Assembly: GCA_937921685.1 (NCBI GenBank)
Contig: CAKZUF010000014.1
Span: forward strand, 4,219-28,218
DNA: 24,000 bases
DNA from: an uncultured archaeon
GTDB lineage: Archaea; Thermoproteota; Nitrososphaeria_A; Caldarchaeales; Calditenuaceae
Direction: 5' to 3'
The notes beneath the pieces are model-generated. The model was not told the DNA's origin, did no database searches, and saw only the letters and a program-made list of their open reading frames with translations. Position 1 is the first letter of the stretch; each line of letters opens with the position of its first letter. Made by a program: the position numbers and the translations under genes. Shown in pieces: positions 1 through 18,252 of this stretch.

Positions 1-59
1 AGGGCGCCGGCCAGCAGCAGCACTACGTTAACCAGCAGACCCTCTACGGTAATGTCCAT
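1..59 (-). CDS. 5' end of a gene that continues beyond the left edge (hydrophobic N-terminus, product unknown)
   Basis: ATG at 59..57 on the minus strand with the frame open to position 1. It translates to MDITVEGLLVNVVLLLAGA. Only 19 codons are visible. Confidence 0.25.
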   Translation of the reverse strand, partial: MDITVEGLLVNVVLLLAGA

Positions 60-189
60 GGCTACATATTATGTATGCAAGGGATACTTATGCTTTACAA
101 GGATACAAGGACTTCATGGTTAGTAGACCTTCCTGGCCATGGGAATAGGGTTTTTTACCAGCCTATACATCTAGAATGCACTAAACGGC

Positions 190-1299
190 TTGATACTCGG
201 CCCTGAATCCTATGGAGATAGGCTCGAAGCGATTAACAACATAGTTAGGACCAATCTTCCTGTTCGCGAGGCAGTCTATGTCGAGGGTGTCTTGACTTTC
301 AAGGTCATGACGAGAGAGATTAAGGAAAGCTTCAAGACAATATACTCGGAGCTTTCCCGCATAGGCTTTGTCCCAGTCGCACAGGATGTCGAGGGTGAAG
401 TAATGTTAAAGATCTATCCCTACACCTCACCGGGGAGGCGTAGAAGCAGGTGGCCACTAATCCTGTTTATCGTCACCGTCTTCACGGTCTTTGTCGATGG
501 TGTGATAAGGTCGGGGGGAATAGATGCTTTCCCGGCTGGCCCGAGATTTTGGGAAGCCGTCGCCTACACCGTCGGTGTTCTTTCCATAATAGGGATACAC
601 GAGCTCGGGCACAAGGTCTCTGCATGGCAGGACAGGATCGACTCCAGTCTGCCATACTTTATACCGGGCATCCCCGGCGTTATGCCGACATTCGGAGCCA
701 TAATCTTCCAGCGTGGGCCGATACGGAACAGGGATGACTTATTCGATCTGGGTGTAAGTGGACCTATAGCGGGTTTCCTTGCGAGCTTGGTCGTGATGGC
801 GTTTGCATTCCAGCAGGCTGAGTGGGTTGAGAGGAGGGTTGTCGAGGAGTTAGTCCAGCGTGGAGCCGTCTCACTCCTACCTTCCCCCCTCATCTTCAAT
901 CTAGCCAACACCATATTCTCGCAAGGTGATCTCGTCCCCATCTTCCCCGCTGTAGGATTCGCCGCTTGGCTGGGAATGGTGGTGACCAGCCTAAACCTTC
1001 TACCCGTCTGGCAACTAGACGGCGGCAGGATATTCAGAAGCCTCACAAGCTTCAAGCGTTACAGGCTACTCTCCTTCATCTCAGTCGGAATACTATTCAT
1101 GACAGGCTACTACTATCTCTCACTCTTACTACTCTTCTTCCTAATGACGCCGATAGATTTTGCACCACTAGACATGGTCTCGCCCCTCTCAAAGTTCCGA
1201 AAGATCTCCTTCATGGGCGTAATTCTGATGCTTGTTGTTACATTTGTGATCCTTCCGGGGCCACTCCTAGGACTCCTCTCTTCACTACTACGCTTCTAG
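190..1299 (+). CDS. site-2 protease family (peptidase M50) intramembrane zinc metalloprotease
   Basis: HExxH motif (GIHELGHKVSA) and second M50 motif NLLPVWQLDGGR. Several hydrophobic segments. The start is TTG at 190, the first start codon after the in-frame stop at 172-174. The nearby ATG at 176 is out of frame, so the start is uncertain. Confidence 0.85.
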   Translation: MILGPESYGDRLEAINNIVRTNLPVREAVYVEGVLTFKVMTREIKESFKTIYSELSRIGFVPVAQDVEGEVMLKIYPYTSPGRRRSRWPLILFIVTVFTVFVDGVIRSGGIDAFPAGPRFWEAVAYTVGVLSIIGIHELGHKVSAWQDRIDSSLPYFIPGIPGVMPTFGAIIFQRGPIRNRDDLFDLGVSGPIAGFLASLVVMAFAFQQAEWVERRVVEELVQRGAVSLLPSPLIFNLANTIFSQGDLVPIFPAVGFAAWLGMVVTSLNLLPVWQLDGGRIFRSLTSFKRYRLLSFISVGILFMTGYYYLSLLLLFFLMTPIDFAPLDMVSPLSKFRKISFMGVILMLVVTFVILPGPLLGLLSSLLRF

Positions 1300-2306
1300 C
1301 CTGTTGCCAGCATGCGGAGGTCTGTGTGCAATCCCTCCCGAACTAGTAGCATCCTGTGGCCCCGTCCATGAAGCCTGAGTAGTTGGGTGAAGCCCTCCTG
1401 CAACGTCTCGAACGTCTTGAGTCCTAGTAGCAACCTGGCAAGGCTCCGTGGAAGGGCGGTGACTAGGTAAGTCCTATAGCTCCGAAGAGCGGACGCTAGC
1501 TCAGCTGCCACGAGTCTATATGGATTAGCATCCAAGTTTAGCTCGCCTTCCGGACCTGCTTTTAGGGTCTCGTAGAGTTGCCGTACAAACTCAGGCGGTC
1601 CCAGCCCCTCCTTACACTCTGAGACCGAGAGTATCGTGGCCCCCTCCCCGCATGCTGGTGATGAGAGGATGATGGACTGGGCTGCTAGGTAGAAGGTGGA
1701 ATCTAGAGGTGTCTTACCAGGCGAGACTATGACCGAGTCGAATACAGGAAGTTTTTGGCCTGTCCTATTATTCTGGGTCCAGATGCCCTGGACTAAGCCA
1801 TCGAGGCTAAAAGAGATCTCCACAGGAAAGAGATTGATGCGGATGGGGTCGAAGCAATTGATTCCATGGATTTTGAATAGCCATGCGAGGTATTCATTTT
1901 GGCTTGTGGCTATTCTGTTTAGGAGCAGCCTCGATGTGACAGGATATGTGAGTATAGCTGACTCTGGGTTTTGAGTCTCCTGGGCTAGCTCTCTGAGCGG
2001 TGCGAGGGGAGGCTTCTTCTCCAGCCTCTCCAGCTCTGCTATCGACTCACCAACCCTCTCCAGCCCAAGCCGCCAGGACGAGACATAGGCGATCTTACAC
2101 GACTCGGCCAGCCTCTCGAGCAATGCCTTATAGGCTGTTGGTGGGGGCAGGTAGTCGATGAAGAGGTATGGCGTATCCGGCATGGCTGAGACCCTAGACA
2201 ACACCTCTTCATTGGAAAGAGGAGTTAGTTTGGGGGTTGTGACTGATAGTTCGGGTGGGGCTTCGAAGAAGACCTCGGTGCTGCCCCACGGGATCCAATA
2301 CTCCAT
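1296..2306 (-). CDS. LarA-fold (lactate racemase / DUF2088-like) protein, apparently lacking the canonical catalytic residues
   Basis: N-terminus MEYWIPWGSTEVFFEAPPE resembles the LarA N-terminal strand. The C-terminal half aligns by eye with LarA (SPGKTPLDSTFYLAAQS vs GGYPLDQNIYQAVKG; GATILSVSECKEGLGPPEF vs GGTIIMVAGARDGHGGEGF). It is 336 aa versus about 424 aa for LarA. Its ATG lies 6 nt after the gnd stop. Confidence 0.5.
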   Translation of the reverse strand: MEYWIPWGSTEVFFEAPPELSVTTPKLTPLSNEEVLSRVSAMPDTPYLFIDYLPPPTAYKALLERLAESCKIAYVSSWRLGLERVGESIAELERLEKKPPLAPLRELAQETQNPESAILTYPVTSRLLLNRIATSQNEYLAWLFKIHGINCFDPIRINLFPVEISFSLDGLVQGIWTQNNRTGQKLPVFDSVIVSPGKTPLDSTFYLAAQSIILSSPACGEGATILSVSECKEGLGPPEFVRQLYETLKAGPEGELNLDANPYRLVAAELASALRSYRTYLVTALPRSLARLLLGLKTFETLQEGFTQLLRLHGRGHRMLLVREGLHTDLRMLATG

Positions 2307-2312
2307 CCCCTA

Positions 2313-3713
2313 TCACTCACTGCTGCGTCCCCAGTCTGAGTGGAAGTATCCCTCCCTGTCCACCCTCTTAAACATGTGTCCGCCGAAATAGTCCCTGATT
2401 CCCTGTATCAGGTTTGCAGGCAGCCTCTCAGACCTCAAGGATAGATAGTAGGAGAGGGCGCTCATGGAGGCTGGTGTGGGGATTCTCATTCTGGATGCGT
2501 CTGTGATGAATTGGAGCCAGTGTGGCATCAGCTCCTCGATCTGAGGTATGCTCTTATCGAGAGTCACTGACGCAGGATCGCCCGGAGACCATGAAAGCTC
2601 CCTGTAAAGCTCTTCAACAATCCTAGACCTTATTATGCAACCAGCCCGCCATACTCGGAGGGCCTCTGAAACCCTGAAACCATAGATCCGAGCTCCTGCT
2701 TGGAGGAGTGATATGCCTTGGATGTAGGAGAGGAGTGTCGTGACGAGTAGCGCGCTTCTGGCTGCCTCCACAGCCTCTTCCACATTCTTATCTCTGTTGA
2801 ATCCTACTCCTTCCCTGGGTCTCCTGAGTATACGCTGGGTCGTGAGGGTCCTCTCGTTCACGGCCGCAGCTATGGTAGGGGCTGAGACCCCCAGCTCCAT
2901 GGCGGCCTCGACCGCCCATCTGCCTGTCCCCTTCTGCTCCGCCTCATCCAAGATTAGCTCAACAAGCGGCTTACCAGTTTCAGTGTCAATGTACTTTAGA
3001 ACTCTTGCCGCCGCCTCAAGCAGAAATGAGCGGAGAATACCCCTCCCCCAGTCCTCAAAGACGGAGCCAACCTCCCCAGTCGAGAGGCCAACTCCTCTCG
3101 CGAGATAGTCATATGCCTCGGCTATCGCCTGCATTATCGCATACTCGATGCCGTTGTGTACGATCTTGACGAAGTGTCCTCCCCCGCCCTCTCCGAAGTA
3201 GCTGACGCATCTTGAGTTCTCGAAGACCGCTGCGGCGCGCCCTATCTTATTCTCTGCCTCGACATAGGCGGAGAAGTCTCCTCCAAACATCATGGATGGG
3301 CCTTTTAACGCCCCTTCCTCTCCACCACTCACACCCACGCCCAGAAATCTAATACCCCTACCCCTAAGTTCGGCAAATCTCCTGTCGGAGTCCCTGTAAT
3401 GCGAGTTGCCACAGTCCATGATAATGTCTCCCTTCTCGAGCATGCCTGTCAAAGTCTCAACCACCTCGTCTACCGGCCTTCCAGCCTTCACGAATAGCAC
3501 AATCATCCTAGGCTTTGAGAGAGATCTCACAAACTCCTTCAAATCCGTGAAGCCCTGTATTCTCCTACCCTTGGCCCTGCCTTGGAGAAACTGTGTTGTT
3601 CTCTCGGCAGTTCTGTTATAGACGGCCACGGCGAGGCCCCTGCTTTCAAGGTTGAGGGCGAATGCCTCGCCCATCACGCCCAAACCGTAGACCCCCACAT
3701 CCAGCGCGTTCAA
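2313..3713 (-). CDS. gnd: 6-phosphogluconate dehydrogenase, decarboxylating
   Basis: Rossmann N-terminus VGVYGLGVMGEAFALNLESRG. Also GVGVSGGEEGALKGPSMMFGG, HFVKIVHNGIEYAIMQ and C-terminal IRDYFGGHMF. Full length at 466 aa. TTG start 3 nt after the upstream stop. Confidence 0.9.
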   Translation of the reverse strand: MNALDVGVYGLGVMGEAFALNLESRGLAVAVYNRTAERTTQFLQGRAKGRRIQGFTDLKEFVRSLSKPRMIVLFVKAGRPVDEVVETLTGMLEKGDIIMDCGNSHYRDSDRRFAELRGRGIRFLGVGVSGGEEGALKGPSMMFGGDFSAYVEAENKIGRAAAVFENSRCVSYFGEGGGGHFVKIVHNGIEYAIMQAIAEAYDYLARGVGLSTGEVGSVFEDWGRGILRSFLLEAAARVLKYIDTETGKPLVELILDEAEQKGTGRWAVEAAMELGVSAPTIAAAVNERTLTTQRILRRPREGVGFNRDKNVEEAVEAARSALLVTTLLSYIQGISLLQAGARIYGFRVSEALRVWRAGCIIRSRIVEELYRELSWSPGDPASVTLDKSIPQIEELMPHWLQFITDASRMRIPTPASMSALSYYLSLRSERLPANLIQGIRDYFGGHMFKRVDREGYFHSDWGRSSE

Positions 3714-3716
3714 TCC

Positions 3717-4070
3717 CTATTGGGCCACCCTCTTTTCTCGGGGATGGTCAACTATTTTTAGGGCATCCTTACCAGCGTAGACCTCGTCTCCCAAAATGAC
3801 TATAGGGCGTATAAGCCTCTTAGGCTCGAGCCTAAGCTTCTCCAGAAACCTCTCAAACCCCTCAACATCATAAATCTTCTTCGCCTCCGCCTTACCGACC
3901 CTAACAACACCCTCAGCACCGTACTTCTCCACGAGCTCTTTTAGAACCCTCTTCTCCGGAGGGTTCTTGATTATGTCTATAAATTTAAGCTCCAGCCCGT
4001 GCGACGTTAGAGCCCTTTCAACCTCCCTGCTCGTCTTACACCGTTTATAGCCATAGAAGATGATGCTCAT
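3717..4070 (-). CDS. ArsC/Spx/YffB-family thioredoxin-fold protein
   Basis: N-terminal IIFYGYKRCKTSREVERAL (Cys in the first loop) and C-terminal LIRPIVILG, in 117 aa. This pattern is typical of the ArsC family (PF03960-like). Recognised by eye only. Confidence 0.6.
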   Translation of the reverse strand: MSIIFYGYKRCKTSREVERALTSHGLELKFIDIIKNPPEKRVLKELVEKYGAEGVVRVGKAEAKKIYDVEGFERFLEKLRLEPKRLIRPIVILGDEVYAGKDALKIVDHPREKRVAQ

Positions 4071-4077
4071 GAGAGGG

Positions 4078-5112
4078 TCACTCTGAAGTGATCCTTATCG
4101 GTATTCGGAGGCTCTCGTAGTACTCCCTTACCCAGGGCAGTATCTCCCTCCCAAGCAGGTTTAGGAACTTCTCCTCGTCTGGCGAGGAGCTGTGGATGAA
4201 TACTCTATCAAAGCCGAGCTTGAGGAATTCTCCGAGCGCCTTATAGATGTCGTCTGGATCGCTCGTTATTAGCCAAGTCTTCTTAATCTTCTCAACCTCG
4301 CTCTCACCAACCATTGCCTCAAGTTCACGCGGGTCTGCGACCCTCTCCCTCTTCTCCCTTGGAATAGCGGTGGGGGCCCAGAAGAGGGCGCCTCCAAGCG
4401 CCTTATCATAGTCGGGATCATATGAGACTTTAAACTCCATACACTTGCTGAGGGTCGATATATCCTTCCCAGCCTTCTTGGCACCGTCTTCGAGGGATTT
4501 CACTATCAGCTCATAGTTCTCGAGTCCGCGGGGATTCGTGAGAATTCCGTCGGCGTATTGTCCAGCTATCTCAGCCACTTTCCTATCCGCGGTGGCAATG
4601 TATAGTTTGATATGCTTCTTTGGCTTGGTGTATAGCTTAGCCTTTACTAGGCGGTAGTATTTTCCCTCATAGTCTACAAAGTCTCCGCGCCAGAGGAGCT
4701 GGATTATCTCTACCGCCTCCTTCAACCTCTCAACTTTTTCTTTATAGCTGGGCCACTGGAACCCGAGTGGCACCTCATTCATAGCATGCCCGGTGCCTAC
4801 TGTTAGGAAGATGCGCCCGGGATACATGTAGTCGAGGGTTGCGAAGGCTTGGGCTACGATGGCCGGATGGTACCTGAAAAGAGGGGTTGTGACTGCAGTA
4901 CCAACCTCAACCCCCTTCAGCCTCTCCGCAACCGCCGTCATCCATATCCAAGGGTGTGCGGAATGGCCCCCATTGTCCCTCCACGGGTGGAAGTGGTCGC
5001 TCGTCACAATAGTGTCGAAGCCCACGATGGAAGCATGTATCGCGAACTCCATAAGCCTGTCTGGCGGATACTGCTCCTGCGCTACCCAGTAGCCGAGGCT
5101 GATACCCCTCAT
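4078..5112 (-). CDS. luciferase-like (LLM) F420-dependent oxidoreductase of the glucose-6-phosphate dehydrogenase (Fgd) family
   Basis: Collinear blocks shared with actinobacterial Fgd: TSDHFHPW, TPLFRYHPAIVAQAFATLDYMYPGRIFLTVGTG, YYRL, VSYDPDYDKA, FWAP, WLITSDPD. I place the start at ATG 5112, preceded by GAGGGGGTG. The track start at 5184 adds 24 non-conserved residues. Confidence 0.8.
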   Translation of the reverse strand: MRGISLGYWVAQEQYPPDRLMEFAIHASIVGFDTIVTSDHFHPWRDNGGHSAHPWIWMTAVAERLKGVEVGTAVTTPLFRYHPAIVAQAFATLDYMYPGRIFLTVGTGHAMNEVPLGFQWPSYKEKVERLKEAVEIIQLLWRGDFVDYEGKYYRLVKAKLYTKPKKHIKLYIATADRKVAEIAGQYADGILTNPRGLENYELIVKSLEDGAKKAGKDISTLSKCMEFKVSYDPDYDKALGGALFWAPTAIPREKRERVADPRELEAMVGESEVEKIKKTWLITSDPDDIYKALGEFLKLGFDRVFIHSSSPDEEKFLNLLGREILPWVREYYESLRIPIRITSE

Positions 5113-5190
5113 CCGCGGATACACCCCCTCCTGCCAAATATATCTGTAATCCGTCTCGAGCGGCAGAGTAATTAAACAAAACACGCTAGA

Positions 5191-5877
5191 ATGGGATGGG
5201 CAGGTAGAAAGCCTTTGAGGCTCGTCCTACTCTCCCATAAGCTGGGGAGAAGTACTCCACTCTACCCCGGAACACCCCCAATACAGCTCACACACTACAG
5301 GAGCATCGAGCGCGGGGACTCAAGCAACCTCTGGATCATCAGCATGGCCAATCACACCGGCACCCACGTCGATGCGCCAAACCACTTCTACAGGGACGGT
5401 CGAAAAATATCTGATTACTCGCTGGAGGAGCTCGTCTTTGAGAACGTCCGACTGATCGATATACCGAAGCAGCCGGGTGGAGAGGTCTTGGCCGAGGATT
5501 TGGAGCCGTACAGGGAGATTATTCAAGCCTGTAGCCTGCTCTTAATCAGGACCGGTCTCCAGGCCCACAGGGACAAGGATCCAGAGGCATACGCTTGCAA
5601 GGGCCTCCTCTTCTCACCTTCAGCCGCCAAGTTTCTCAAAGACTCGTCCCCCAACCTCAAGGGTCTCGGAATCGACGCAATCAGCGTCTCCACGCCTCTG
5701 CGGAGAAACGAGGGGCGAGAAAGCCATAGAATACTCCTGTCTGACAACCGGTTCCTAATAATCGAGGATATGGACCTTGCTGGCAAGCCTAACGCCTACA
5801 GGTACGTTATCTTGGCACCACTCTTTTTAGACGAGGTCGACAGCGCTCCCTGCACCGCCATCGGAGTCACCGATTGA
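5191..5877 (+). CDS. cyclase-family metal-dependent hydrolase (kynurenine formamidase / isatin hydrolase-like)
   Basis: Signature HTGTHVDAPNHF (HxGTHxDxPxH), N-terminal LSHKL...PLYPGTPP, 228 aa. Divergent from the fgd-like gene across a 78-nt A/T-rich spacer. Confidence 0.75.
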   Translation: MGWAGRKPLRLVLLSHKLGRSTPLYPGTPPIQLTHYRSIERGDSSNLWIISMANHTGTHVDAPNHFYRDGRKISDYSLEELVFENVRLIDIPKQPGGEVLAEDLEPYREIIQACSLLLIRTGLQAHRDKDPEAYACKGLLFSPSAAKFLKDSSPNLKGLGIDAISVSTPLRRNEGRESHRILLSDNRFLIIEDMDLAGKPNAYRYVILAPLFLDEVDSAPCTAIGVTD

Positions 5878-6280
5878 GGCCACTAAGACTCCTTAGCCTC
5901 TTCGACAGCCTCTCGACCTCTCCCTTAAAGTCTAGGCTGCCATGTCTGATCAACCCGCCACCCATCGTCTTGGGTATGTGAAGTAGCTCGTGAAGTATGA
6001 CTTCCACCTTGTCTTCACTCGACAACCTGTCAAAGACCTCCGAGACAAACTCAATCACGTAGCAGGGGCGGAGGCCGAGACCAGCCCATAACGCCCTGCT
6101 CCCAGCATGGACGCGTGCGGCTACGCTCCTAGACCTGGTCTCATAGCTTCTAACACACTTAATCCTAGTGTAGTCGAGATAGACGAGCCCAACGCGCGAC
6201 CCAATCTCTTTAACATACTCCTCGAGTGATCTGTCCCTCACATATCTAGCCATCGCCAGGACCCAGCCCCGCCGCCTCAT
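5867..6280 (-). CDS. small predicted zinc metallopeptidase (HExxH)
   Basis: VILHELLHIPKTMGGGLIRH contains HExxH followed by a downstream His. The 137-aa size resembles small archaeal predicted metallopeptidases. Its 3' end overlaps the convergent cyclase gene by 11 nt. Confidence 0.5.
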   Translation of the reverse strand: MRRRGWVLAMARYVRDRSLEEYVKEIGSRVGLVYLDYTRIKCVRSYETRSRSVAARVHAGSRALWAGLGLRPCYVIEFVSEVFDRLSSEDKVEVILHELLHIPKTMGGGLIRHGSLDFKGEVERLSKRLRSLSGLNR

Positions 6281-6340
6281 TTAACTGTATAGCGAGAGAT
6301 GCGACAAAAGATATAACCAACAGCCCAAAGGCCCATTAGT

Positions 6341-6396
6341 GGGATGATGACCAACGTCCACGCCGAGTCGTGAGGCGTCGATGGGCAGTCTGACCC
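6341..6396 (+). ncRNA. C/D box sRNA candidate (2'-O-methylation guide)
   Basis: GGG (6341-43), C box AUGAUGA (6344-50), 12-nt guide CCAACGUCCACG, D' CCGA (6363-66), 3-nt spacer, degenerate C' GUGAGGC (6370-76), 13-nt guide GUCGAUGGGCAGU, D box CUGA (6390-93), CCC (6394-96) closing a terminal stem. Intergenic. Confidence 0.6.
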
Positions 6397-6402
6397 CCCT
6401 AC

Positions 6403-8748
6403 CTACCCCTCTTCTACTATGTTGTGCATTGCTACTAGGTCTTCCCTGAAGGGTGATAGTTCTTCTGGCACGCTTATCCTTATCGGCTCCCTCAGCGAGA
6501 GGTTCATCTCCTTCTTTCGACGCCAGACATCACTGTTGAAGAAGACTAGCCGCTCGGTGTATTTTGTGTAGGATTTGTCCCACCTAGGCCTCGGGAACCT
6601 CTCTAAGTGTATGGACCTCTCGGAGTACAGGGTCCGCCAGATATAGTCTGTTACGAAGGGTGTTATCGGTGCCAGTAGCAGGAGGCAAGACTTTAGCACA
6701 GTGTGTAGGGTGTACCACGCGGCCCTTGCCCCCTGCCCGTTCGACGTCCTGCCGAGGGCCCTCATCTTAGTCATCTCCACATAGTGGCTGGCGAAAAGGT
6801 TCCAGAGAAAGTTTCTGACCTTCGTGGCAGGGATGAAAAAGTTGTACTCCTTGTACCCATTCAACACCTCTCCAATCAACGCCGAGAGCTCCGATAGTAT
6901 CCACCTATCAGAGGGCAGAAGCCTCGCTCCCTTGGGTTGGGGGAACTGTGAAACATATCTCGCAACGTTCCAGAGCTTGGTTAAGAATTTGCCGGCGGCC
7001 TGTATCCGGGCCTCCGATATCCTGAAGTCGTAGCCGAGGCTCGCCTCCTGCGCACACCAGAACCGGAAGATATCAGCACCATACTTCTCGAGTACTGGGC
7101 GTGGGTCAATTACGTTCCCCTTACTCTTACTCATCTTCTCGCCCTTCTCATCAAGCCCCATTCCACTGACCCACACGCTCTTGAAGGGCGGTCTCCCCGT
7201 CAGCTGATAACACCTTAGGAGGGTATAGTATAGCCAAGTCCTCACTATGTCCTTCCCCTGAGGCCTGAGGGCTACGGGGTATGCGCGGCGGAAGAACTTC
7301 TCATCTCTCATGTATCCGGAGATGAATAGAGGGGAGATGCTAGAGTCAACCCACGTGTCGAGTGTCCTCTCCTCACCCTCGAACTCTCCGCCACCACATT
7401 TCTCGCACCTGCTGAAGGGCGGACTCTCCTTCCACGGCCGATAATACTTGCCGGGAGGTGGTAGGTTTGGCCAGCCACAAGACTTACAATACCAGATAGG
7501 TATCTCGGTCGCGTAGTATCTACGCCTGGAGATCGGCCAGTCAAATTTCAAGGAGTTTATCCAGTCGACGAGTAGCTGTCTATGGAACTCGGGATAAAAG
7601 GTCATCCTCGAGCCTGCATCCAGCAGCTCCTCCCTCAAACTCAACTGTGTCAAGTAATACTCCTCCATAGGTATGATCTCTATGGGCGTGTTCGACCGCT
7701 CGCATATCGGCACCTGGTGCATGATCTTCTCAACTTTTACGACCCGGCCCTCGCTAGACAACAGCTCAACAATTCTACGCCTTGCCTCCTCGACAGTCAT
7801 CCCTTTCAGCGGCCCCGCAGCCTCAAGCATGCGGCCATCCAACCCTATCAGGATGACCTCTTCAAGACCCAGCTCCCGGAATAGCTGGACATCCGTCCTA
7901 TCGCCATAGCTGCAGACCATCACGAGCCCTGTCCCAAACTCTGGCCTCGCGGCGCTGTGCGCAATTATCGGAACCTCTCTGCCATAGATGGGGACAACCG
8001 CCCTTTGACCATCGAGGTGCTGGTACCTCTCGTCTGAGGAGTTGTATATGACTGCCCTGCATGCTCCAAGGAGCTCTGGACGGGTGCTCGCCACGACTAT
8101 CTCTCCACCATCGGCGAGGTCGAAGCGCATGTAGACGAGGTCTGTCGGCATCTCGGCATAATCCACTTCGGCGTCAGCTATTGTCGTCCCGCAGTCAGGG
8201 CAGAAGTTGTTCGGTCTGGAGGCCCTGTAAATCAGCCCCTTCCTAAATAGTTCAATAAACGTGGCCTGGGTAAGGGACCTGTACTCCTCAGAGTCTGTCC
8301 TATACTTGTTTTCGAAGTCTCCAGAAAGGCCTGCCCTCTTCATGATCCAGAGCATCTCGGCCTCGAGCTGGTCAAGGGTCTGGGAGCAGATGCGAATAAA
8401 CTCCTCGCGTGGTAGGCTAGTCAGCCTTATCTTCATCTCCCGCTCCACAAACCTCTCCACTGGTATGCCGTTTCTATCAATACCTATTGGGAAGTAGACT
8501 TCATATCCCATCATCCGGGCGGTCCTCGCTATCATGTCTATCTGGGTGTAGTGTGCAGCGGCACCTATGTGCCAAGGCCTACCTGAGGGATATGGTGGGG
8601 GTGTGTCGATCAGGAATAACCTCCTCCTCGAATCCTTCCTGAAGACGTAAAGTTTCTCAGAATCCCATCTGGCGAGGAGCTCCTCCTCCAGCTTGGGCTC
8701 CCACCGCGTCTCCCTCAACTTGGGCTCAAGCTTAATAGTCTCCGACAC
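6403..8748 (-). CDS. valS: valine--tRNA ligase (class I aaRS with editing domain)
   Basis: KMSKS motif (KMSKSKGN), HIGH-region PPPYPSGRPWHIGAAAHY, editing-domain block GTGLVMVCSYGDRTD, DTWVDSSISP, RPQGKDIVRTWLYYT. 781 aa. The ValRS versus Ile/Leu assignment was made by eye. Confidence 0.72.
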   Translation of the reverse strand: MSETIKLEPKLRETRWEPKLEEELLARWDSEKLYVFRKDSRRRLFLIDTPPPYPSGRPWHIGAAAHYTQIDMIARTARMMGYEVYFPIGIDRNGIPVERFVEREMKIRLTSLPREEFIRICSQTLDQLEAEMLWIMKRAGLSGDFENKYRTDSEEYRSLTQATFIELFRKGLIYRASRPNNFCPDCGTTIADAEVDYAEMPTDLVYMRFDLADGGEIVVASTRPELLGACRAVIYNSSDERYQHLDGQRAVVPIYGREVPIIAHSAARPEFGTGLVMVCSYGDRTDVQLFRELGLEEVILIGLDGRMLEAAGPLKGMTVEEARRRIVELLSSEGRVVKVEKIMHQVPICERSNTPIEIIPMEEYYLTQLSLREELLDAGSRMTFYPEFHRQLLVDWINSLKFDWPISRRRYYATEIPIWYCKSCGWPNLPPPGKYYRPWKESPPFSRCEKCGGGEFEGEERTLDTWVDSSISPLFISGYMRDEKFFRRAYPVALRPQGKDIVRTWLYYTLLRCYQLTGRPPFKSVWVSGMGLDEKGEKMSKSKGNVIDPRPVLEKYGADIFRFWCAQEASLGYDFRISEARIQAAGKFLTKLWNVARYVSQFPQPKGARLLPSDRWILSELSALIGEVLNGYKEYNFFIPATKVRNFLWNLFASHYVEMTKMRALGRTSNGQGARAAWYTLHTVLKSCLLLLAPITPFVTDYIWRTLYSERSIHLERFPRPRWDKSYTKYTERLVFFNSDVWRRKKEMNLSLREPIRISVPEELSPFREDLVAMHNIVEEG

Positions 8749-10610: not shown

Positions 10611-11501
10611 TCACAGCAACTTGTACAATATTTTAAACTTGATATATTCCCATAGGAGGGTCCTAAAGAACTCCCTAAACGCCCCCCTCGGGTAAACAAC
10701 ATCACTTACCCCCTTCTCACTCATCTCATACTCCAAACCCCTTATGACAGCTACTGGAATCCCCTCACCTGTTTGGCCGAAGACAAGATTAGCTGCTGCC
10801 GAGACCAGATCCGTTAAATCATCAACACCACCAAACTTCGGCTTACCATAAAGGTCTCTACCCGCAAACTTTCTCGAAACAGGCTGTATGCCTGAGGAGC
10901 CTATAGCAATATCAACTGTTCCAAACTTATCCAATTTCCACTCTGTGTCTGCAATGACGACGGCAACATCCCTCCCCGTCAGCTCCTTTATCCTTATCCT
11001 TATACGCCTAGCCGACTCATCCGGGTCTTTAGGAATAGACGTGCAGTGTCCGGGTGGGGAGTTTGAGAAATCTATGCCTCCCCAGGTGAGAAGCCTATTA
11101 GACACATCAATTAGGAAGAGATAGGGGTGCTCGCCTATGACTTTTCGAGCATCCTCCCTATCAGCAGCATAATCCTCATACAGGTGTCCATATTTCTCTG
11201 CAAGTTTTTCGATCGGTACTACTGCCTTTATCTCTCCGGCCCTGAGGTACAGCTCCATAGCTGCTGGATGTGTCTTATAGATTCTCGACAATCGGTAGGC
11301 CTTTCGGGAGGGCTTCACATCGCTTAAGTTATAGGTTTGCCCCTCAGCCTTTGAAACTATCTTCGATGTAATTACAATAACGTCACGATCTGTAATACCA
11401 CCCAATTGGTTCTGAGCCTCCCTAACAATCAGCTCCGCAATATCAATCCCATATTCGATCTCCTCACTAATCCTTAACCCATAAATCTCCACCTTCTTCA
11501 T
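10611..11501 (-). CDS. cofE: coenzyme F420-0:L-glutamate ligase (CofE family)
   Basis: ITSKIVSKAEG, GIDFSN, DESARRIRIRIKELTGRDVAVVIADTE, GRDLYGKP, GEGIPVAVIRGL. These are collinear with archaeal CofE as I recall it. At 296 aa it is somewhat longer than typical. Confidence 0.72.
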   Translation of the reverse strand: MKKVEIYGLRISEEIEYGIDIAELIVREAQNQLGGITDRDVIVITSKIVSKAEGQTYNLSDVKPSRKAYRLSRIYKTHPAAMELYLRAGEIKAVVPIEKLAEKYGHLYEDYAADREDARKVIGEHPYLFLIDVSNRLLTWGGIDFSNSPPGHCTSIPKDPDESARRIRIRIKELTGRDVAVVIADTEWKLDKFGTVDIAIGSSGIQPVSRKFAGRDLYGKPKFGGVDDLTDLVSAAANLVFGQTGEGIPVAVIRGLEYEMSEKGVSDVVYPRGAFREFFRTLLWEYIKFKILYKLL

Positions 11502-11594: not shown

Positions 11595-13277
11595 TTATGC
11601 TGTTGTATGTAGCTTTTCCTTCCTTTTGAGTATGTCCTGCTCATCCACTTTCTTGAATAGGGGTGTAGGTCTTGTGATTTGGGTGTTTGGCTTGATCAGG
11701 ATATTCCCTATTTTTTTCCAGCTACCGGTTGTGTTGAGTCCCATGCCTATTGTCTCTCGGAGGCGGTTTGCTGTATCTGGTGTAAAGATTTCTAGGAAGA
11801 TTGTTAGGGCGGCGACGACTTGGGATGCCACGTAGAGTGTTGTGGCTGCCTTCTGGGGGTCTTTCTTCTGCAGCTTCCATGGCTCCTTAAGGTTGAGGTA
11901 ACTGTTTGCCTCCTTAACTAGCGTGAGCACCTCTATCAGTGATTGTCTCTCCCTGACCTCGCCCATCAGCTCGTCTATCCTGTCTCTGGTCTCGGCGATT
12001 TTGGCGAGGACTCTCCTATCATCGTCGTCTAATCCGTGAGGCTCGGGGACTCTGCCGCCGAAGTTTTGGTAGACGAATGTCAAGACCCTGTGAATATAGT
12101 TTCCTATATCGTCGTTGAGGTCGCTGTTTACCGTGGATACGAAGTCCTGCCACTTGAAGTTTGTGTCGCTGGTCTCGGGCCTTATCTTGACTAGGTAGTA
12201 TCTCCAGTAGTCGCTTGGCAGTATCTCTAGCGCCTCATCAAGCCATACTCCAATCCTCTTACTCTTGGAGAATTTCTGGCCCTCAAATGTTAGGTACTCC
12301 GTAGCCGAGACGTTCCAGGGCAGGACAAAGCCCTCCCCATGCGCCAAAAGGAGAGCAGGTAGGATTATGGTGTGGAATGGTATGTTATCCTTCCCTATGA
12401 AGAAGACTGTTCGTGTCCGCTTGTCCAGCCAGTATCTCTCCCAGAGGCTCGGATCCCCCCTAGATATTCCAAGCTCTACCGTTGCGGAGATGTAGCCCAG
12501 AACCGCCTCGAACCAGACGTAGATTGTTTTTCCATCCGCTCCGGGGAAGGGTGCCGGGATTCCCCACTTATTGTCGCGGGTTACAGCCCGTGGGCGCAGC
12601 CCCTCCTCTATCCAGCTCATGCTGAAGGCCCTGACCCGCTCATGCATGTGTTGGTTTGAGGCGAGCCAGTTTCTGATGGGATCAGCTAGCTGGGGTAGGT
12701 CGAGGAACCAGTGTCGTGTGGTTTTGACTACGGGTGTTGAGCCGCAGATTGCACACACCGGGTTTTTGAGGTCTAGCGGGTCTAGAACTCTTCCACAGGC
12801 CTCACATTGATCCCCCCTCGCATAGTTGTATCCGCAGTGTGGGCAAGTCCCCAGCACGAATCTGTCCGGCAGAAATCTTCTGCAATTCTCGCAGTAGAGC
12901 TGGTCAATTTCCCTCTCGAAGATGTAGCCGTTCTCATATACTCGCTTGAAGAAATCTTGGCAGAATGATATGTGTATTGGGTTGTGCGTCCTAGTGTAGT
13001 TGTCAAACGAGAGGCTGAATCTCTTAAAAATTTCCACGACTCTCGTGTGGAATCTATCGGTCAGGGTTTTCGGGTCTACTCCCTGCTTAGCCGCCTCGAC
13101 CTCTATTGGCGTGCCATGTTCGTCTGAGCCGCTGACAAAGAGGACGTCTTCGCCTCTCAGCCTCAGATACCTCGCATAGACGTCGGCTGATAGCTCGGAC
13201 CCTATGAGATTACCAATATGTGGGATCCCGTGGATATACGGCCAAGCGCCCCCGACAACCCACTTGCCGAGCTCTAC
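11595..13277 (-). CDS. metG: methionine--tRNA ligase (catalytic core plus anticodon-binding domain, no C-terminal tRNA-binding domain)
   Basis: The track ORF (start 13037) lacks the HIGH region. The same frame is open up to 13277 and encodes GKWVVGGAWPYIHGIPHIGNLIGSELSADVYARYLRLRGEDVLFVSGSDEHGTPIEVE, a typical crenarchaeal-type MetRS N-terminus. Also Zn knuckle CPHCGY...CEACG and KFSKS. No canonical start codon upstream of 13037 (see findings). Confidence 0.85.
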   Translation of the reverse strand, partial: VELGKWVVGGAWPYIHGIPHIGNLIGSELSADVYARYLRLRGEDVLFVSGSDEHGTPIEVEAAKQGVDPKTLTDRFHTRVVEIFKRFSLSFDNYTRTHNPIHISFCQDFFKRVYENGYIFEREIDQLYCENCRRFLPDRFVLGTCPHCGYNYARGDQCEACGRVLDPLDLKNPVCAICGSTPVVKTTRHWFLDLPQLADPIRNWLASNQHMHERVRAFSMSWIEEGLRPRAVTRDNKWGIPAPFPGADGKTIYVWFEAVLGYISATVELGISRGDPSLWERYWLDKRTRTVFFIGKDNIPFHTIILPALLLAHGEGFVLPWNVSATEYLTFEGQKFSKSKRIGVWLDEALEILPSDYWRYYLVKIRPETSDTNFKWQDFVSTVNSDLNDDIGNYIHRVLTFVYQNFGGRVPEPHGLDDDDRRVLAKIAETRDRIDELMGEVRERQSLIEVLTLVKEANSYLNLKEPWKLQKKDPQKAATTLYVASQVVAALTIFLEIFTPDTANRLRETIGMGLNTTGSWKKIGNILIKPNTQITRPTPLFKKVDEQDILKRKEKLHTTA

Positions 13278-13756: not shown

Positions 13757-13859
13757 GGGCCCGTAGCTCAGGCAGGTAGAGCGGCCGGCTCTTAACCGGG
13801 AAGTCGGCCACTGGTAGGGAGAAACCGGTAGGTCGAGGGTTCAAATCCCTCCGGGCCCG
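13757..13859 (+). tRNA. tRNA-Lys(CUU) with a 29-nt intron at the canonical 37/38 position (13795-13823)
   Basis: Acceptor GGGCCCG/CGGGCCC, D arm GCUC-AGGCAGGUA-GAGC, anticodon stem GCCGG/CCGGU, loop CUCUUA|A, T arm GAGGG-UUCAAAU-CCCUC, discriminator G, no encoded CCA. Mature length 74 nt. A 4-bp helix 13789-92/13818-21 and the AAA bulge form the 3' half of a BHB. Confidence 0.85.
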
Positions 13860-14475: not shown

Positions 14476-15006
14476 TTAGCCTGTAAGGGGCGTGAGCTGG
14501 CCTCTTATCTCTCCTGCCGGGAACCTTGCGGTATGCACATTTACATAGGCGGCGCCAGCCCTTATCGCTTCTATCACAGAGTCGAGGTCGCCTGCGTTCA
14601 GCCCCTGCCCCGTTATCGCCTGTACATCAGAGGCTGTTAATGTCCCTGTGACTCTACCATGTGAGCTTGGGCATGCAGGTTTGGGGCCTCCGCAGAGCCA
14701 TACTGCTACACCTCCGACATGGCCGTCCTTACCTATGTGTATGTGTGCCATAGATACATCGGCGAGGCCAAAGTAGACAAGCTCGTAAGATATGCTTCTT
14801 CCATCCTCAGATATCCTTACAGTTGCCCAGCCGACACCTCCCGAGACAATGGATGGGACCTCGTTAAAGCCTGAAAGTGTGGCTGTGAAGAGTCTCGCAC
14901 CAGAGGAGGCCGGTACGATTACTGTAAAAACTAGAGCCGTCGCGACAGCTATGGTCAATATCGATAAAATCAATAGAGCTGCTAAACTGGTTGTTATTCT
15001 CGCCAT
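14476..15006 (-). CDS. CHRD-domain protein with N-terminal signal/anchor
   Basis: N-terminal hydrophobic helix (LAALLILSILTIAVATALV). CHRD hallmarks LSGFNEVP, AHIHIGKDGHVGGV, YVNVHTARFPAGEIRGQL. Confidence 0.75.
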   Translation of the reverse strand: MARITTSLAALLILSILTIAVATALVFTVIVPASSGARLFTATLSGFNEVPSIVSGGVGWATVRISEDGRSISYELVYFGLADVSMAHIHIGKDGHVGGVAVWLCGGPKPACPSSHGRVTGTLTASDVQAITGQGLNAGDLDSVIEAIRAGAAYVNVHTARFPAGEIRGQLTPLTG

Positions 15007-16591: not shown

Positions 16592-17197
16592 CTAAACCTT
16601 AGCTTTGCTGAACCTATTCTCCACATCGTCCCAGTTTACTACCTGCCACCAGGCATCCACGTAGCTGGCGCGGTCATTCTTGTATTGTAGATAGTATGCA
16701 TGCTCCCAGACATCGAGTGAGAGCAGAATAGGCAGCTGGGCAAGGTGCATGAGATTCTGCTTCTCAATCTGCGTTAAGACTAGCCTGTCCGCCTCAGGGT
16801 CGTATAGGAGGAGGGCCCAGCCGACACCCTCAACCGTTTTAGCCGCATCGCTAAACAGTTTTTTAAACCTGTCGAACCCTCCGAACTCCTTTTCAATACG
16901 ATCTGCTATGCCGCCGCCGGGCTTTCCGCCCCCTCTGCCGGGTGGGGCCATGTTGGGCCAAAAGATGGAGTGGAGCTTATGCCCATCTAAGTTAAAGCTC
17001 AAATCCCTCAATACGGCTCTTACATCGATCTCTATCTCGCCGCGTGCCGCCTTCTCAATCTTCTCTAAAGCCGCGTTGGCTCCATTAACATAGGCTTGGT
17101 GGTGTTTTGTGTGGTGTAGCGTCATGATCTGCTCAGAGATGACTGGCTCGAGTGCGTTGTACGCATATGGAAGTTGTGGAAGAGTATATTTCGGCAT
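16592..17197 (-). CDS. sod: Fe/Mn superoxide dismutase
   Basis: LPQLPYAYNALEPVISEQIMTLHHTKHHQAYV and DVWEHAYYLQYKN (metal ligands His, His, Asp, His). 201 aa. Confidence 0.92.
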   Translation of the reverse strand: MPKYTLPQLPYAYNALEPVISEQIMTLHHTKHHQAYVNGANAALEKIEKAARGEIEIDVRAVLRDLSFNLDGHKLHSIFWPNMAPPGRGGGKPGGGIADRIEKEFGGFDRFKKLFSDAAKTVEGVGWALLLYDPEADRLVLTQIEKQNLMHLAQLPILLSLDVWEHAYYLQYKNDRASYVDAWWQVVNWDDVENRFSKAKV

Positions 17198-18094: not shown

Positions 18095-18252
18095 GCTATT
18101 GAATTTTTCCCTGAAGTAGATGCGAAGGTTATGAGTGCGCCGCGAAGACTGAAAAGGTCTTCCACATATACGCGGAAGCATACAGAACCCATACAAGCTT
18201 GGGTTGTTGCCTGAGATTTGGTCAGGTCCTGAGGTGTGTCACCAACACAGTG

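Follow-up and report, generated by a model that had tools for sequence, protein, structure and literature searches.

A candidate F420-linked oxidative pentose-phosphate operon in the archaeal family Calditenuaceae

The locus studied here raises the question of whether a hot-spring archaeon couples a luciferase-like F420-dependent dehydrogenase (LLM) to 6-phosphogluconate dehydrogenase (6PGDH, encoded by gnd) and thereby converts hexose phosphate to pentose phosphate. Within the 24,000-nucleotide stretch of DNA that we analysed (the window), both genes belong to a compact four-gene cluster, and we consider it reasonably probable that what is encoded here is an F420-linked oxidative pentose-phosphate pathway (PPP) module in its Calditenuaceae form (Aigarchaeota, order Caldarchaeales). 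A sequence-only reading of the window had presented this as a new pathway variant; the novelty of the idea is low, since it had been predicted before from genomes. [quoted passage not shown] 2016, PMC4681859), and similar genomic inferences were made for Nitrososphaera gargensis and evergladensis (Spang 2012; Zhalnina 2014). The entry for Fgd in a review of F420 reads ‘Thaumarchaeota?’, and the Caldarchaeum genome paper describes RuMP and no oxidative PPP.

Operon layout and gene products

The four co-directional minus-strand ORFs (Table 1) are separated by gaps of exactly 7, 3 and 6 nt according to both the ORF listing and the sequence itself, the tight layout that had first drawn attention to them, and their order is kept in relatives. 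From this layout we infer that the four genes are co-transcribed as a single transcript. They are not chance ORFs, because LLM matches TIGR03554 (E=2e-92) and Pfam Bac_luciferase (167 bits) and gnd matches NF006765 (E=1e-154). Although the longest possible LLM ORF begins at GTG 5184, we place the start at ATG 5112, because the resulting N-terminus (M-R-G...) is conserved in orthologues and a conserved TATA-like box lies upstream; for gnd, the TTG is the sole start codon 5' of the conserved N-terminus DVGVYGLGVMG. The box, ATATATTT, occupies positions 5136-5143 of the minus strand, 23 nt 5' of the LLM ATG, and a similar box ([A/T]TATATT) stands 22-27 nt before ATG-AGG in the window and in lineages L081, L090 and L091. 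The position of this putative promoter points to an operon transcript with a short leader or none. Antisense ORFs are also present in the region, at 1696-1974, 2740-3108 and 4849-5175. Neither Rfam families nor tRNAs were found in positions 1-6500 of the window. The surroundings of the operon (ValRS, FtsZ, MetRS, M50 peptidase) represent ordinary housekeeping synteny, and a SOD gene is also present in the window.

Table 1 Coordinates of the operon and associated features in the window
Feature	Positions	Strand	Description
LLM gene (luciferase-like F420-dependent dehydrogenase)	4078-5112	minus	344 aa; operon gene 1
ArsC/Spx/YffB-family thioredoxin-fold gene	3717-4070	minus	117 aa; operon gene 2
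gnd	2313-3713	minus	466 aa, TTG start; operon gene 3
LarA-like gene	1296-2306	minus	336 aa; operon gene 4
Cyclase-family (PF04199) metal-dependent hydrolase	5191-5877	plus	divergent from LLM gene
Divergent intergenic region	5113-5190		TATA-like box inside
cofE (F420-0:gamma-glutamyl ligase)	10611-11501	minus	Pfam F420_ligase 178.2 bits

The gnd product, already recognized as a full-length decarboxylating 6PGDH from the sequence, clears the equivalog cut-offs of both NF006765 (515.6 bits, cut-off 413) and TIGR00873 (486.7 bits, cut-off 426.7), contains the Pfam domains NAD_binding_2 and 6PGD, and is a bona fide enzyme of the long (466 aa) type. Its residues N33-R34-T35, invariant in seven orthologues, form an NRT motif which we take to be the 2'-phosphate site, and the cofactor is probably NADP.

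The kinship implied by the labels arsC-like and larA-like holds at the level of family or fold, but the specific family tests failed. The ArsC-like protein has one invariant Cys (C11) in the motif RC-x-T-S and stays below the cut-offs (in brackets) of TIGR01617 (34.9 bits (75)), TIGR00014 (26.9 (106)) and the Pfam families Glutaredoxin (22.6 (22.9)) and ArsC (17.8 (24)). A four-orthologue profile matches PDB ‘putative arsenate reductases’ (2M46, E=3e-9), YffB (1RW1) and Spx, and by these similarities we assign the protein to the ArsC/Spx family. Its gene holds the same operon slot in L081, L090 and L091, and follows the LLM gene in L011.

The LarA-like protein scores above the cut-off for Pfam LarA_C (26.1, cut-off 25) and far below that for NF033504 (28.4, cut-off 460). 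Its AF2 model (pLDDT 82.6, pTM 0.86) has LarA structures as top Foldseek matches (2YJG/5HUQ, E=1e-10, TMq 0.6), and hhalign pairs it with LarA-type proteins at a probability of 100 with ~85 middle residues absent. It thus shares with LarA and the LarA-homologue 2-hydroxyacid racemases/epimerases a predicted two-domain fold and the C-terminal GGxPxDxxLY and AEC-EG-G motifs, while being ~85 residues shorter and missing the segment in which the catalytic His pair, the NPN-binding/tethering Lys and the Ni-ligand His are located. Residues 1-296 include no invariant His or Lys, and we read the protein as having, according to the model, a LarA fold, with the catalytic and cofactor residues missing. 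The family comprises ~20 full-length representative clusters out of 1.84 billion, and its gene always lies directly 3' of gnd (in the window, L081, L090, L091, L087, L088 and L092); the protein diverged to 43% identity while the four-gene operon was kept.

Divergent from the operon lies a cyclase-family hydrolase gene that the sequence-only reading overlooked and that is a more conserved partner of LLM than gnd (13 vs 10 of 20 lineages). Since the copy in the database has 220 aa, the true start may be at ~5215; the window protein is 87% identical to the copy of Calditenuaceae HR02. It exceeds the Pfam Cyclase cut-off (90.4 bits, cut-off 23.1) and falls short of that for TIGR03035 arylformamidase (68 bits, cut-off 223). 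It belongs to the same family as KynB and isatin hydrolase (PF04199) and conserves the metal-binding motif HxGTHxDxPxH as well as the distal His/Glu, both of which align with kynurenine formamidase 4CO9; it differs from KynB in the arylformamidase score and in its partners, which are F420 dehydrogenase, 6PGDH and RpiA rather than tryptophan-catabolic genes. It may be the missing 6-phosphogluconolactonase.

A distinct LLM clade with an altered pocket

The first gene had been read as resembling an F420-dependent G6PDH (FGD) of actinobacterial type. All motifs quoted for it are present (SDHFHPW, FRYHPAIVAQAFATL, VGTGHAMNE, VSYDPD, FWAP, WLITSDPD, KKTW), and its best single matches are indeed FGDs (TIGR03554; PDB 5LXE, 300 bits; 3B4Y, 293 bits), followed by Adf (1RHC) at 254 bits. 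The proposed HMM comparison gave a split outcome: LLM passes TIGR03557, the F420 ‘G6P-dehydrogenase family’ (236.4 bits, cut-off 210.4), but misses the FGD equivalog TIGR03554 (309.5 bits, cut-off 420) and the FMN-type TIGR03885 (243.1 bits, cut-off 398.7, thus 155 bits short). The raw score for TIGR03885 is slightly higher than that for TIGR03557. In neighbour-joining analysis the LLM clade was monophyletic in 100/100 bootstraps and paired with FGD/FSD in 0/100, its nearest relatives being archaeal LLMs that have no assigned substrate and whose pockets are unrelated. Identity is ~40% to FGD/FSD and up to 50% to archaeal LLMs in which the pocket is quite different. Orthology to FGD is ruled out by the equivalog score, the identity and the bootstraps; LLM is a member of a distinct Nitrososphaerota clade within the TIGR03557 family.

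The clade signature, H W H [S/A] N R R E [T/S], corresponds to FGD1 positions 40/44/109/177/195/198/259/260/283. Glu13, His40 and Trp44, to which catalytic roles have been ascribed in FGD (PMC12384609), are invariant. Both caveats raised beforehand, the replacement of Glu109 by His and of a pocket Arg in KKTW, are real and hold clade-wide: position 109 is His in 86/86 sequences, and Arg283 has become Thr or Ser (Thr in the window). The phosphate-pocket Lys198 and Lys259 are replaced by invariant Arg, and Thr195 and Lys9 by Asn and Trp. Strict conservation of the three pocket residues is reported for active FGDs, and R282Q virtually abolishes the activity of Rh-FGD1. Ser/Ala at position 177 is shared with the FSDs of Nocardioides and Cryptosporangium (Mascotti 2018), where FGD has Gly, and could reflect a relaxed hexose-6-phosphate range; the FSDs, however, retain Glu109 and the K/K/R pocket (signature HWESTKKHR at Nocardioides loci L057 and L065-68) and cluster with FGDs. 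Because of its gene context, we regard LLM as a candidate hexose-6-phosphate (G6P) dehydrogenase.

Gene neighbourhoods and alternative readings

The identical four-gene order is found in the window, L081-L086, L090 and L091, which represent four Calditenuaceae lineages. Across 20 lineages, the commonest partner of the LLM clade is a homologue of sugar-phosphate isomerases whose SIS domain is PHI-like (14/20), and the partners recur in shuffled arrangements. The fgd-like/gnd pair, whose conservation had been posed as a check, extends beyond the window genome: gnd lies within the examined flank in 10/20 lineages, in four different arrangements, and is absent from it in the other ten, Caldarchaeum included. 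Besides the operon these arrangements include LarA-like<-gnd | cyclase<- ->LLM-><-SIS (L087, L088, L092), cyclase<- ->LLM-><-SIS ->gnd (L002, L004) and SIS, LLM ... cyclase->gnd (L172), where the hydrolase gene is directly 5' of gnd. The re-association of these families spans Caldarchaeales, Conexivisphaerales-like and Nitrososphaera lineages, and in the other arrangements the families remain a few kb from one another at most. LLM, cyclase or LarA-like neighbours were seen at none of 79 bacterial-type gnd loci. Nitrososphaera has a parallel operon, LLM-rpiA-cyclase-cupin-gnd, whose 6PGDH is of the short type and whose LLM (signature HWETYADSA) lacks all of the pocket residues.

That LLM acts on other or broader sugar phosphates, either as an FSD-like enzyme (F6P, M6P) or on a hexulose phosphate or amino-sugar phosphate that the PHI-like SIS neighbour would process, is a less likely but still plausible view; gnd would then be loosely coupled and the cluster a general hexose-/pentose-phosphate neighbourhood. 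It draws on the R/R/T pocket of LLM (K/K/R in strict FGDs), on position 177, on the isomerase being the most conserved neighbour (14 lineages, 10 for gnd) and on Cryar-FSD, which oxidizes F6P through intrinsic isomerase activity. However, F6P/M6P oxidation by FSDs yields the same product class, and the tight LLM-gnd operon (7 and 3 nt, four lineages) together with cyclase->gnd in L172 most simply means that the product is 6-phosphogluconolactone or 6-phosphogluconate.

We think it improbable that LLM is no sugar-phosphate enzyme at all but an Adf-like alcohol/aldehyde dehydrogenase or an F420H2-/FMN-dependent reductase, in a redox/oxidative-stress housekeeping cluster where LLM would not feed Gnd, where NADPH would come from Gnd and where the ArsC-like thiol protein and nearby SOD would contribute. 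The relatives without assigned substrates, the Adf and TIGR03885 scores, the altered catalytic acid (E109H), the ArsC/Spx-family protein and SOD, which in L009 lies between the cyclase and LLM genes, all fit such a role. Yet the invariant Arg pair occupies phosphate-pocket positions, where Adf has no basic residue at 198 and fHMAD has no pocket residues; each recurring partner is a sugar-phosphate enzyme (PHI-like SIS, 6PGDH or, in Nitrososphaera, RpiA); TIGR03885 is missed by a wide margin; and F420 maturation genes are nearby. More doubtful still is that the adjacency is a lineage-specific rearrangement accident of four independently expressed housekeeping genes: ten flanks without gnd and the ordinary synteny around would agree with it, but gaps of 3 to 7 nt are too small for promoters, the same families rejoin in at least four arrangements, and the 79 bacterial-type gnd loci lack such partners.

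The proposed pathway and known systems

In the module that we favour, the promoter just 5' of the LLM gene would drive one four-gene transcript. LLM would reduce F420 while oxidizing a hexose 6-phosphate (most likely glucose 6-phosphate) at C1 to form the lactone, transferring hydride through the conserved His40/Glu13/Trp44 machinery of F420 dehydrogenases; the Arg pair at the FGD Lys198/Lys259 sites would hold the phosphate, and the invariant His would replace Glu109 as proton donor. The lactone may open spontaneously at high temperature or be opened by the divergently encoded hydrolase, and Gnd would decarboxylate 6-phosphogluconate to ribulose 5-phosphate with formation of NADPH. If true, the net yield is pentose phosphate, F420H2 and NADPH, obtained without the formaldehyde release of the reverse RuMP route. 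Half of the lineages having no gnd in the flank and the pocket-less LLM of the Nitrososphaera operon argue against this module, as do the missed FGD cut-off, the changes at 109 and 283, the failure of the clade to group with FGD/FSD and the raw TIGR03885 score. The TIGR03557 score, FGDs being the closest characterized relatives, the invariant catalytic residues and Arg pair, the equivalog-level gnd, the conserved operon, the recurring partners, the parallel gene order in Nitrososphaera, cofE and the independent published inference argue for it. The cofE gene was correctly spotted in the window; it scores just below the TIGR01916 cut-off (166.5 bits, cut-off 180.65), L091 likewise has an F420_ligase gene, ~6 kb away from its operon, and we treat cofE as context evidence that suggests F420 maturation in the organism.

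The Calditenuis and Nitrososphaera inferences concern the same organism group, proposed pathway and lactonase gap; function there was assigned by annotation only, and those papers are silent on how the operon is built, on the active-site signature that departs from FGD and on the conserved partners (hydrolase, isomerase, ArsC-like protein and LarA-like protein). The oxidative PPP of Haloferax volcanii is likewise an archaeal route from G6P to Ru5P through a non-canonical G6PDH and 6PGDH; it is biochemically characterized and uses an unrelated SDR-type fold with NAD+, whereas the module proposed for the window would use an LLM TIM barrel with F420. Compared with FGD, the window LLM is archaeal and thermophilic, and its gene shares an operon with gnd beside a cyclase-family hydrolase gene, a setting unseen at the bacterial-type gnd loci. 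Both proteins have the TIM-barrel LLM fold and equal length, align end to end and share His40, Trp44, Glu13, Asn112, the GTGxxxNE and SDHFxPW motifs and basic residues at 198 and 259. The proposed role is shared as well, as mycobacterial FGD also feeds the pentose-phosphate pathway.

Gene content of the operon and its surroundings

The four ORFs of the minus-strand operon are genuine genes (see table), and reading the sequence bore out the sequence-only reading in its structural details, i.e., four co-directional genes with gaps of 7, 3 and 6 nt, every peptide motif that it quoted, and the presence of cofE in the window. The base composition showed nothing unusual, and no Rfam family or tRNA was found in the operon region. 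When upstream regions were compared by eye, a TATA-like box (ATATATTT) was seen 23 nt upstream of the ATG of the luciferase-like F420-dependent dehydrogenase (LLM) gene, with a comparable box 22-27 nt upstream in three related operons. This placement points to a promoter directly before the LLM gene, from which the four genes would be transcribed together with a short or absent leader. Since both the box and the N-termini of orthologues support it, the LLM start was set at the ATG at 5112 and not at the upstream GTG at 5184. Both the LLM and the divergent cyclase-family protein have their closest homologues in MAGs of Nitrososphaerota, Aigarchaeota and Caldarchaeum, and the cyclase shares 87% identity with its counterpart in "Candidatus Calditenuaceae archaeon HR02".

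Features of the window and of related loci (window coordinates unless a locus is named; arrows give gene direction)
Feature	Position or loci	Strand	Remarks
LLM gene (first in operon)	4078-5112	-	Pfam Bac_luciferase 167 bits; TIGR03554 E = 2e-92
ArsC-like gene (second)	3717-4070	-	Weak family matches only
gnd (third)	2313-3713	-	NF006765 and TIGR00873 equivalog cut-offs passed
LarA-like gene (fourth)	1296-2306	-	Weak family matches only
TATA-like box	5136-5143		Upstream of LLM
Cyclase-family gene	5191-5877	+	Pfam Cyclase; divergent from LLM
HExxH protein	5867-6280	-	137 aa; Pfam PhageMetallopep 75 bits
cofE	10611-11501		F420 maturation gene
MetRS frame	11595-13277	-	
tRNA (Rfam)	13757-13859	+	57.7 bits
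CHRD-domain protein	14476-15006	-	97 bits
Fe/Mn superoxide dismutase	16592-17197		
Prephenate-dehydrogenase-like Rossmann protein	17237-18196	-	Pfam F420_oxidored marginal, 22.5 vs 21.6
SIS gene (PHI-like isomerase homologue)	L088 7040-8197; L089 7066-8223; L002 9043-10212; nine other loci		
cyclase<- ->LLM-ArsC-like-gnd-LarA-like	window, L081-L086, L090, L091		Calditenuaceae type; four-gene operon, divergent cyclase
LarA-like<-gnd / metallopeptidase / cyclase<- ->LLM-><-SIS	L087, L088, L092		
cyclase<- ->LLM-><-SIS ->gnd	L002, L004		Terraquivivens
cyclase<- ->LLM-><-SIS	L001, L089		Caldarchaeum; flank without gnd
LLM and SIS only	L003, L005-L008, L010		Labelled Bathyarchaeia or Conexivisphaerales
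SIS and LLM 3 kb from cyclase->gnd pair	L172		Conexivisphaerales-like; pair 55 nt apart
LLM-RpiA-cyclase-cupin-6PGDH	L036 1591-5401; also L031		Nitrososphaera sp. MAG contigs; one direction

The product of the third gene had been read as a full-length decarboxylating 6-phosphogluconate dehydrogenase (6PGDH), and this identification is secure: it exceeds two equivalog cut-offs (TIGR00873, 486.7 bits against 426.7; NF006765, 515.6 bits against 413) and has the two-domain architecture of Pfam NAD_binding_2 and 6PGD. It is of the long form, with a motif read as VYNRTAERT, in which seven orthologues all share N33, R34 and T35. Taking Asn-Arg-Thr after the first beta-alpha-beta unit of 6PGDH to be a mark of NADP+ preference, as we assume here, the motif would predict a preference for NADP.

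The remainder of the window carries archaeal housekeeping genes (ValRS, FtsZ, MetRS, succinyl-CoA synthetase beta, superoxide dismutase (SOD), PAC2 chaperone, MscS, Lrp/AsnC regulator), together with the CHRD-domain and prephenate-dehydrogenase-like proteins. In the MetRS frame, the conserved N-terminus with its class-I HIGH motif (VELGKWVVGGAWPYIHGIPHIGN) directly follows an in-frame TGA (13280-13278), and no ATG, GTG or TTG precedes the GTG at 13037. The same start situation is found in the 82%-related lineage L081-L086 (L081 852-2534), and both the window and this lineage have a GTG overlapping this upstream stop codon in another frame (TAGGTGAG); recoding, a frameshift or use of an unusual start codon could each account for the anomaly. 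The tRNA detected by Rfam spans 103 nt, was not reported by ARAGORN, and is probably an intron-containing archaeal tRNA. Besides the SOD of the window, one related locus (L009) has a SOD (7334-7966) between the cyclase and the LLM, and such proximity may link the supply of F420H2/NADPH to oxidative-stress defence.

The luciferase-like dehydrogenase and its clade

The proposal that the first gene encodes an F420-linked glucose-6-phosphate dehydrogenase stood at the level of family and failed at the level of function-specific models. The protein belongs to the TIGR03557 ("F420_G6P_family") subfamily (236.4 bits, cut-off 210.4), and close homologues carry matching names at NCBI, but it scored 309.5 bits against the cut-off of 420 for TIGR03554, the equivalog model of bacterial F420-dependent glucose-6-phosphate dehydrogenases (FGD). 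FMN-type membership, which the sequence-only reading had set against its own proposal, was likewise not found (TIGR03885, FMN-dependent "flavin-revert" LLMs, 243.1 bits, cut-off 398.7). The nearest solved structures are FGD1 from Rhodococcus (300 bits) and M. tuberculosis (293), then the archaeal alcohol dehydrogenase Adf (254); PDB 9HAV ("luciferase family protein") also matches (217 bits), and since our literature search found no paper for it, it gave no functional lead.

An alignment of 193 relatives and reference sequences was inspected at FGD1 positions 40, 44, 109, 177, 195, 198, 259, 260 and 283. FGD and bacterial enzymes of the type of the F420-dependent sugar-6-phosphate dehydrogenases (FSD) have the signature H-W-E-[G/S/A]-T-K-K-x-R, and the window protein and 85 other sequences have H-W-H-[S/A]-N-R-R-E-[T/S]; these 86 comprise all matches of at least ~56% identity (P0001-P0083 and loci L001-L011), hereafter the clade. 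His40 and Trp44 are invariant in 193/193 sequences and Glu13 in alignment A1. In FGD, Glu13 and His40 make up the proposed catalytic dyad, and the source that describes it and the role of Trp44 assigns protonation of F420 N1 to Glu109 (PMC12384609). With Glu13, His40 and Trp44 invariant, the hydride-transfer core is intact. Both caveats raised from the sequence alone proved well founded. Position 109 is His in the window and throughout the clade (86/86), where every FGD/FSD and 98% of the other sampled LLMs have Glu, and the phosphate-pocket triad reads Arg, Arg, Thr in the window and R, R, T/S in the clade, such that two of three positions retain a positive charge and Arg283 is replaced by Thr/Ser. 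Active FGDs reportedly retain all three residues without exception, and Rh-FGD1 loses virtually all activity when R282Q is introduced.

Further clade-specific invariants include W9 (Lys in FGD), D46, T104, K126, K159, N193 and P194. A new invariant basic residue compensating for Arg283 was sought and none was convincing, the clade-specific K159 and R322 included. A Glu109His/His260Glu "charge swap" was also considered as a compensatory pair and rejected: His260 occurs in only ~30% of the sampled FGD/FSD, and the combination marks one clade, therefore representing a single evolutionary event and not covariation.

In a neighbour-joining tree of 106 representatives (100 bootstraps), in which relatives of the query are over-represented, the clade was monophyletic in 100/100 replicates and FGD/FSD in 88/100, and the two were sisters in 0/100. 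Nearest to the clade are other LLMs from archaea, whose pocket signatures are unrelated; identity to these archaeal paralogues reaches 50%, compared with ~40% to FGD/FSD. The LLM is thus a member of the F420-dehydrogenase subfamily and no orthologue of FGD, and homology does not allow its substrate to be transferred. The literature that we searched reports no assay of any archaeal family member.

Partner genes in the window and in relatives

Twenty contig lineages bearing a clade LLM, drawn from one genome per species and from exact-protein look-ups, were scanned with the proteins of the window. The LLM/gnd pairing, proposed earlier as a mark of a coupled pathway, is conserved in part, with gnd near the LLM in 10/20 lineages and other flanks lacking it. 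The cyclase-family hydrolase accompanies the LLM in 13/20 lineages, and a SIS protein of 385-390 aa, absent from the window, lies convergent to it in 14/20; the ArsC-like gene directly follows the LLM in five lineages, and the LarA-like gene directly follows gnd in seven, associating with gnd and not with the LLM. In the lineage of the window, the ArsC-like, gnd and LarA-like genes occupy the place held elsewhere by SIS. A metagenome scan with the gnd alignment served purely as a negative control for neighbourhood: 79 of the 80 matches listed were bacterial-type, and among these, 0/79 gnd loci had partners of the LLM locus.

The C-terminal domain of the SIS protein resembles 6-phospho-3-hexuloisomerase (TIGR03127, 79-91 bits, below the cut-off of 160), its best PDB matches are an HPS-PHI fusion and MJ1247, and its N-terminal half (~200 aa) was assigned to no family. 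On L172 (1-7193), where the cyclase precedes gnd in the same orientation and a clade-type LLM and SIS lie 3-4 kb away, the LLM and SIS genes are broken by frameshifts and stops, which are probably long-read assembly errors. Pairs of SIS and an LLM of ~67% identity also occur on contigs labelled Acidobacteriota (L007; proteins P0047 and P0053; Acidoferrum, Terriglobales, Acidoferrales), which suggests mis-binning or inter-domain transfer.

The cyclase protein passes Pfam Cyclase (90.4 bits, cut-off 23.1) and falls far below the kynurenine formamidase equivalog TIGR03035 (68 bits, cut-off 223); with kynurenine formamidase it shares the HxGTHxDxPxH metal site and the distal His/Glu. Genomic association makes it a candidate 6-phosphogluconolactonase; no paper linking PF04199 proteins to lactonase activity was found in the literature searched. 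The family has further sugar-related contexts, as homologues at 37% (L173) and 32% (L174) identity lie in sugar-nucleotide/polysaccharide biosynthesis clusters, and the pentose-phosphate link is therefore limited to closer relatives (at least ~44%) and the Nitrososphaera branch. Neighbours in the L173 and L174 clusters include epimerases, a 2-hydroxyacid dehydrogenase, HAD hydrolases, methyltransferases and radical SAM proteins. Every locus of types A and B (window, L081, L087, L088, L090-L092) has the HExxH protein beside the cyclase.

The Nitrososphaera cluster is an independent parallel to these loci. Its LLM belongs to another subclade (TIGR03557, 232 bits) with the signature HWETYADSA, without any FGD phosphate-pocket residue; its RpiA passes TIGR00021, its cupin has weak similarity to sugar-phosphate isomerases, and its 6PGDH is of the short type (TIGR00872, 305 against 297). 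Together, the cluster looks like a complete oxidative route from F6P to R5P.

The two remaining operon proteins keep their earlier labels at the level of superfamily or fold only. For the 117-aa ArsC-like protein, which has one invariant Cys, a four-sequence profile matches PDB 2M46 (3e-9) as well as YffB and Spx, supporting a place in the ArsC/Spx/YffB family of thioredoxin-fold proteins, but the specific cut-offs are missed (TIGR00014 (glutaredoxin-coupled arsenate reductase ArsC), 26.9 vs 106; TIGR01617 (Spx), 34.9 vs 75; Pfam ArsC, 17.8 vs 24), and the single-sequence AF2 model (pLDDT 51) was too low for use. The AlphaFold model of the 336-aa LarA-like protein was confident (pLDDT 82.6, pTM 0.86), and its sole significant Foldseek neighbours were LarA-type racemases (2YJG and 5HUQ, E = 1e-10, TMq ~0.6), which predicts the LarA two-domain fold. 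Profile-profile comparison by hhalign aligned it full-length with LarA-type proteins (probability 100), except that the central LarA segment is short by ~85 residues. In LarA, that segment holds the catalytic His pair, the tethering Lys of the nickel-pincer (NPN) cofactor and the Ni-ligand His. Among nine orthologues, no invariant His or Lys was found in residues 1-296, and with the central segment deleted or unaligned the protein lacks these residues of NPN racemases (LarA/LarAH). It also fails the family models (NF033504, 28.4 vs 460; NF052593, 38.8 vs 500), with Pfam LarA_C the only LarA model passed, and that marginally (26.1 vs 25). The family is tiny: of 1.84 billion representative clusters, ~20 contain it at full length.

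Proposed pathway and known systems

We propose that the LLM would oxidise a hexose 6-phosphate, most probably G6P, with reduction of F420, that the lactone would open spontaneously or through the cyclase-family hydrolase, and that Gnd would then yield Ru5P, CO2 and NADPH. Our main argument that the clade uses a hexose phosphate and feeds Gnd is that closeness to sugar- and pentose-phosphate enzymes has been kept through repeated rearrangement, and the mechanism as a whole seems to us reasonably probable. Genes, residues, fold and synteny are observations; substrate, cofactor, co-transcription and the roles of the partners are inferred. The altered phosphate pocket and the frequent SIS neighbour would also suit a different or broader sugar-phosphate specificity, a doubt already voiced from the sequence alone; against it stands the tight operon with gnd, and we consider it rather unlikely. 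A non-sugar redox role would accord with the position of the clade among archaeal LLMs of unrelated pocket signature, and has against it the two Arg retained in the pocket and the company of sugar-phosphate genes; we regard it as the more improbable of the two.

Beyond oxidation of a hexose 6-phosphate by the LLM, a joint reading of the loci can be entertained tentatively, although we think it doubtful in its entirety. Nitrososphaerota would have a self-contained, all-non-canonical oxidative pentose-phosphate module, covering Aigarchaeota, Thaumarchaeota and relatives, in which oxidation of hexose 6-phosphates would have arisen in the His109-type F420 dehydrogenases separately from bacterial FGD/FSD, a metallohydrolase of kynurenine-formamidase fold would be the missing archaeal 6-phosphogluconolactonase, and a dedicated isomerase, either the double-domain PHI-like SIS protein or, in Nitrososphaera, the cupin, would make G6P from F6P. 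The short LarA-fold and ArsC-family proteins would be accessory or regulatory factors linked to Gnd. With its compact operon and conserved partners, among them the PHI-like isomerase and the cyclase as candidate lactonase, the locus opens the pathway to direct testing. If it is true, a thermostable F420-regenerating dehydrogenase, a new activity for the cyclase/formamidase fold and a central pathway built independently from different protein families would be gained; if the LLM turns out to act on a different substrate, the metabolic reconstructions published for Aigarchaeota and Thaumarchaeota would have to be corrected.

To our knowledge, the oxidative pentose-phosphate branch is thought to be absent from most archaea, and we know of only one archaeal version demonstrated biochemically, the haloarchaeal SDR-type pathway. 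The novelty claimed for the pathway in the sequence-only reading did not survive, as an F420-dependent oxidative branch has already been predicted in print for the aigarchaeon Calditenuis aerorheumensis (Beam et al., 2016, PMC4681859). An F420-dependent oxidoreductase of the G6PDH family was listed for Nitrososphaera, and a 6PGDH in N. gargensis, by Zhalnina et al. (2014), up to 12 K15510 copies have been reported for Gagatemarchaeaceae, and metabolic maps of Aigarchaeota and Thaumarchaeota have shown the branch for a decade from annotation alone, with the lactonase step missing. A 2021 review of F420 entered Fgd as "Thaumarchaeota?", with no TACK F420 enzyme experimentally confirmed, and the ADH, FSD and FGD subfamilies were defined from bacterial enzymes and Adf (Mascotti et al., 2018). 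The enzyme behind the decade-old annotation is no FGD orthologue and lacks two residues considered essential in FGD, and the annotation therefore needs an assay. As a pathway, what we describe is a published prediction. As an enzyme, it is a previously unrecognised variant, which forms a clade of its own, differs in catalytic acid and pocket, and has a conserved set of unusual partners.
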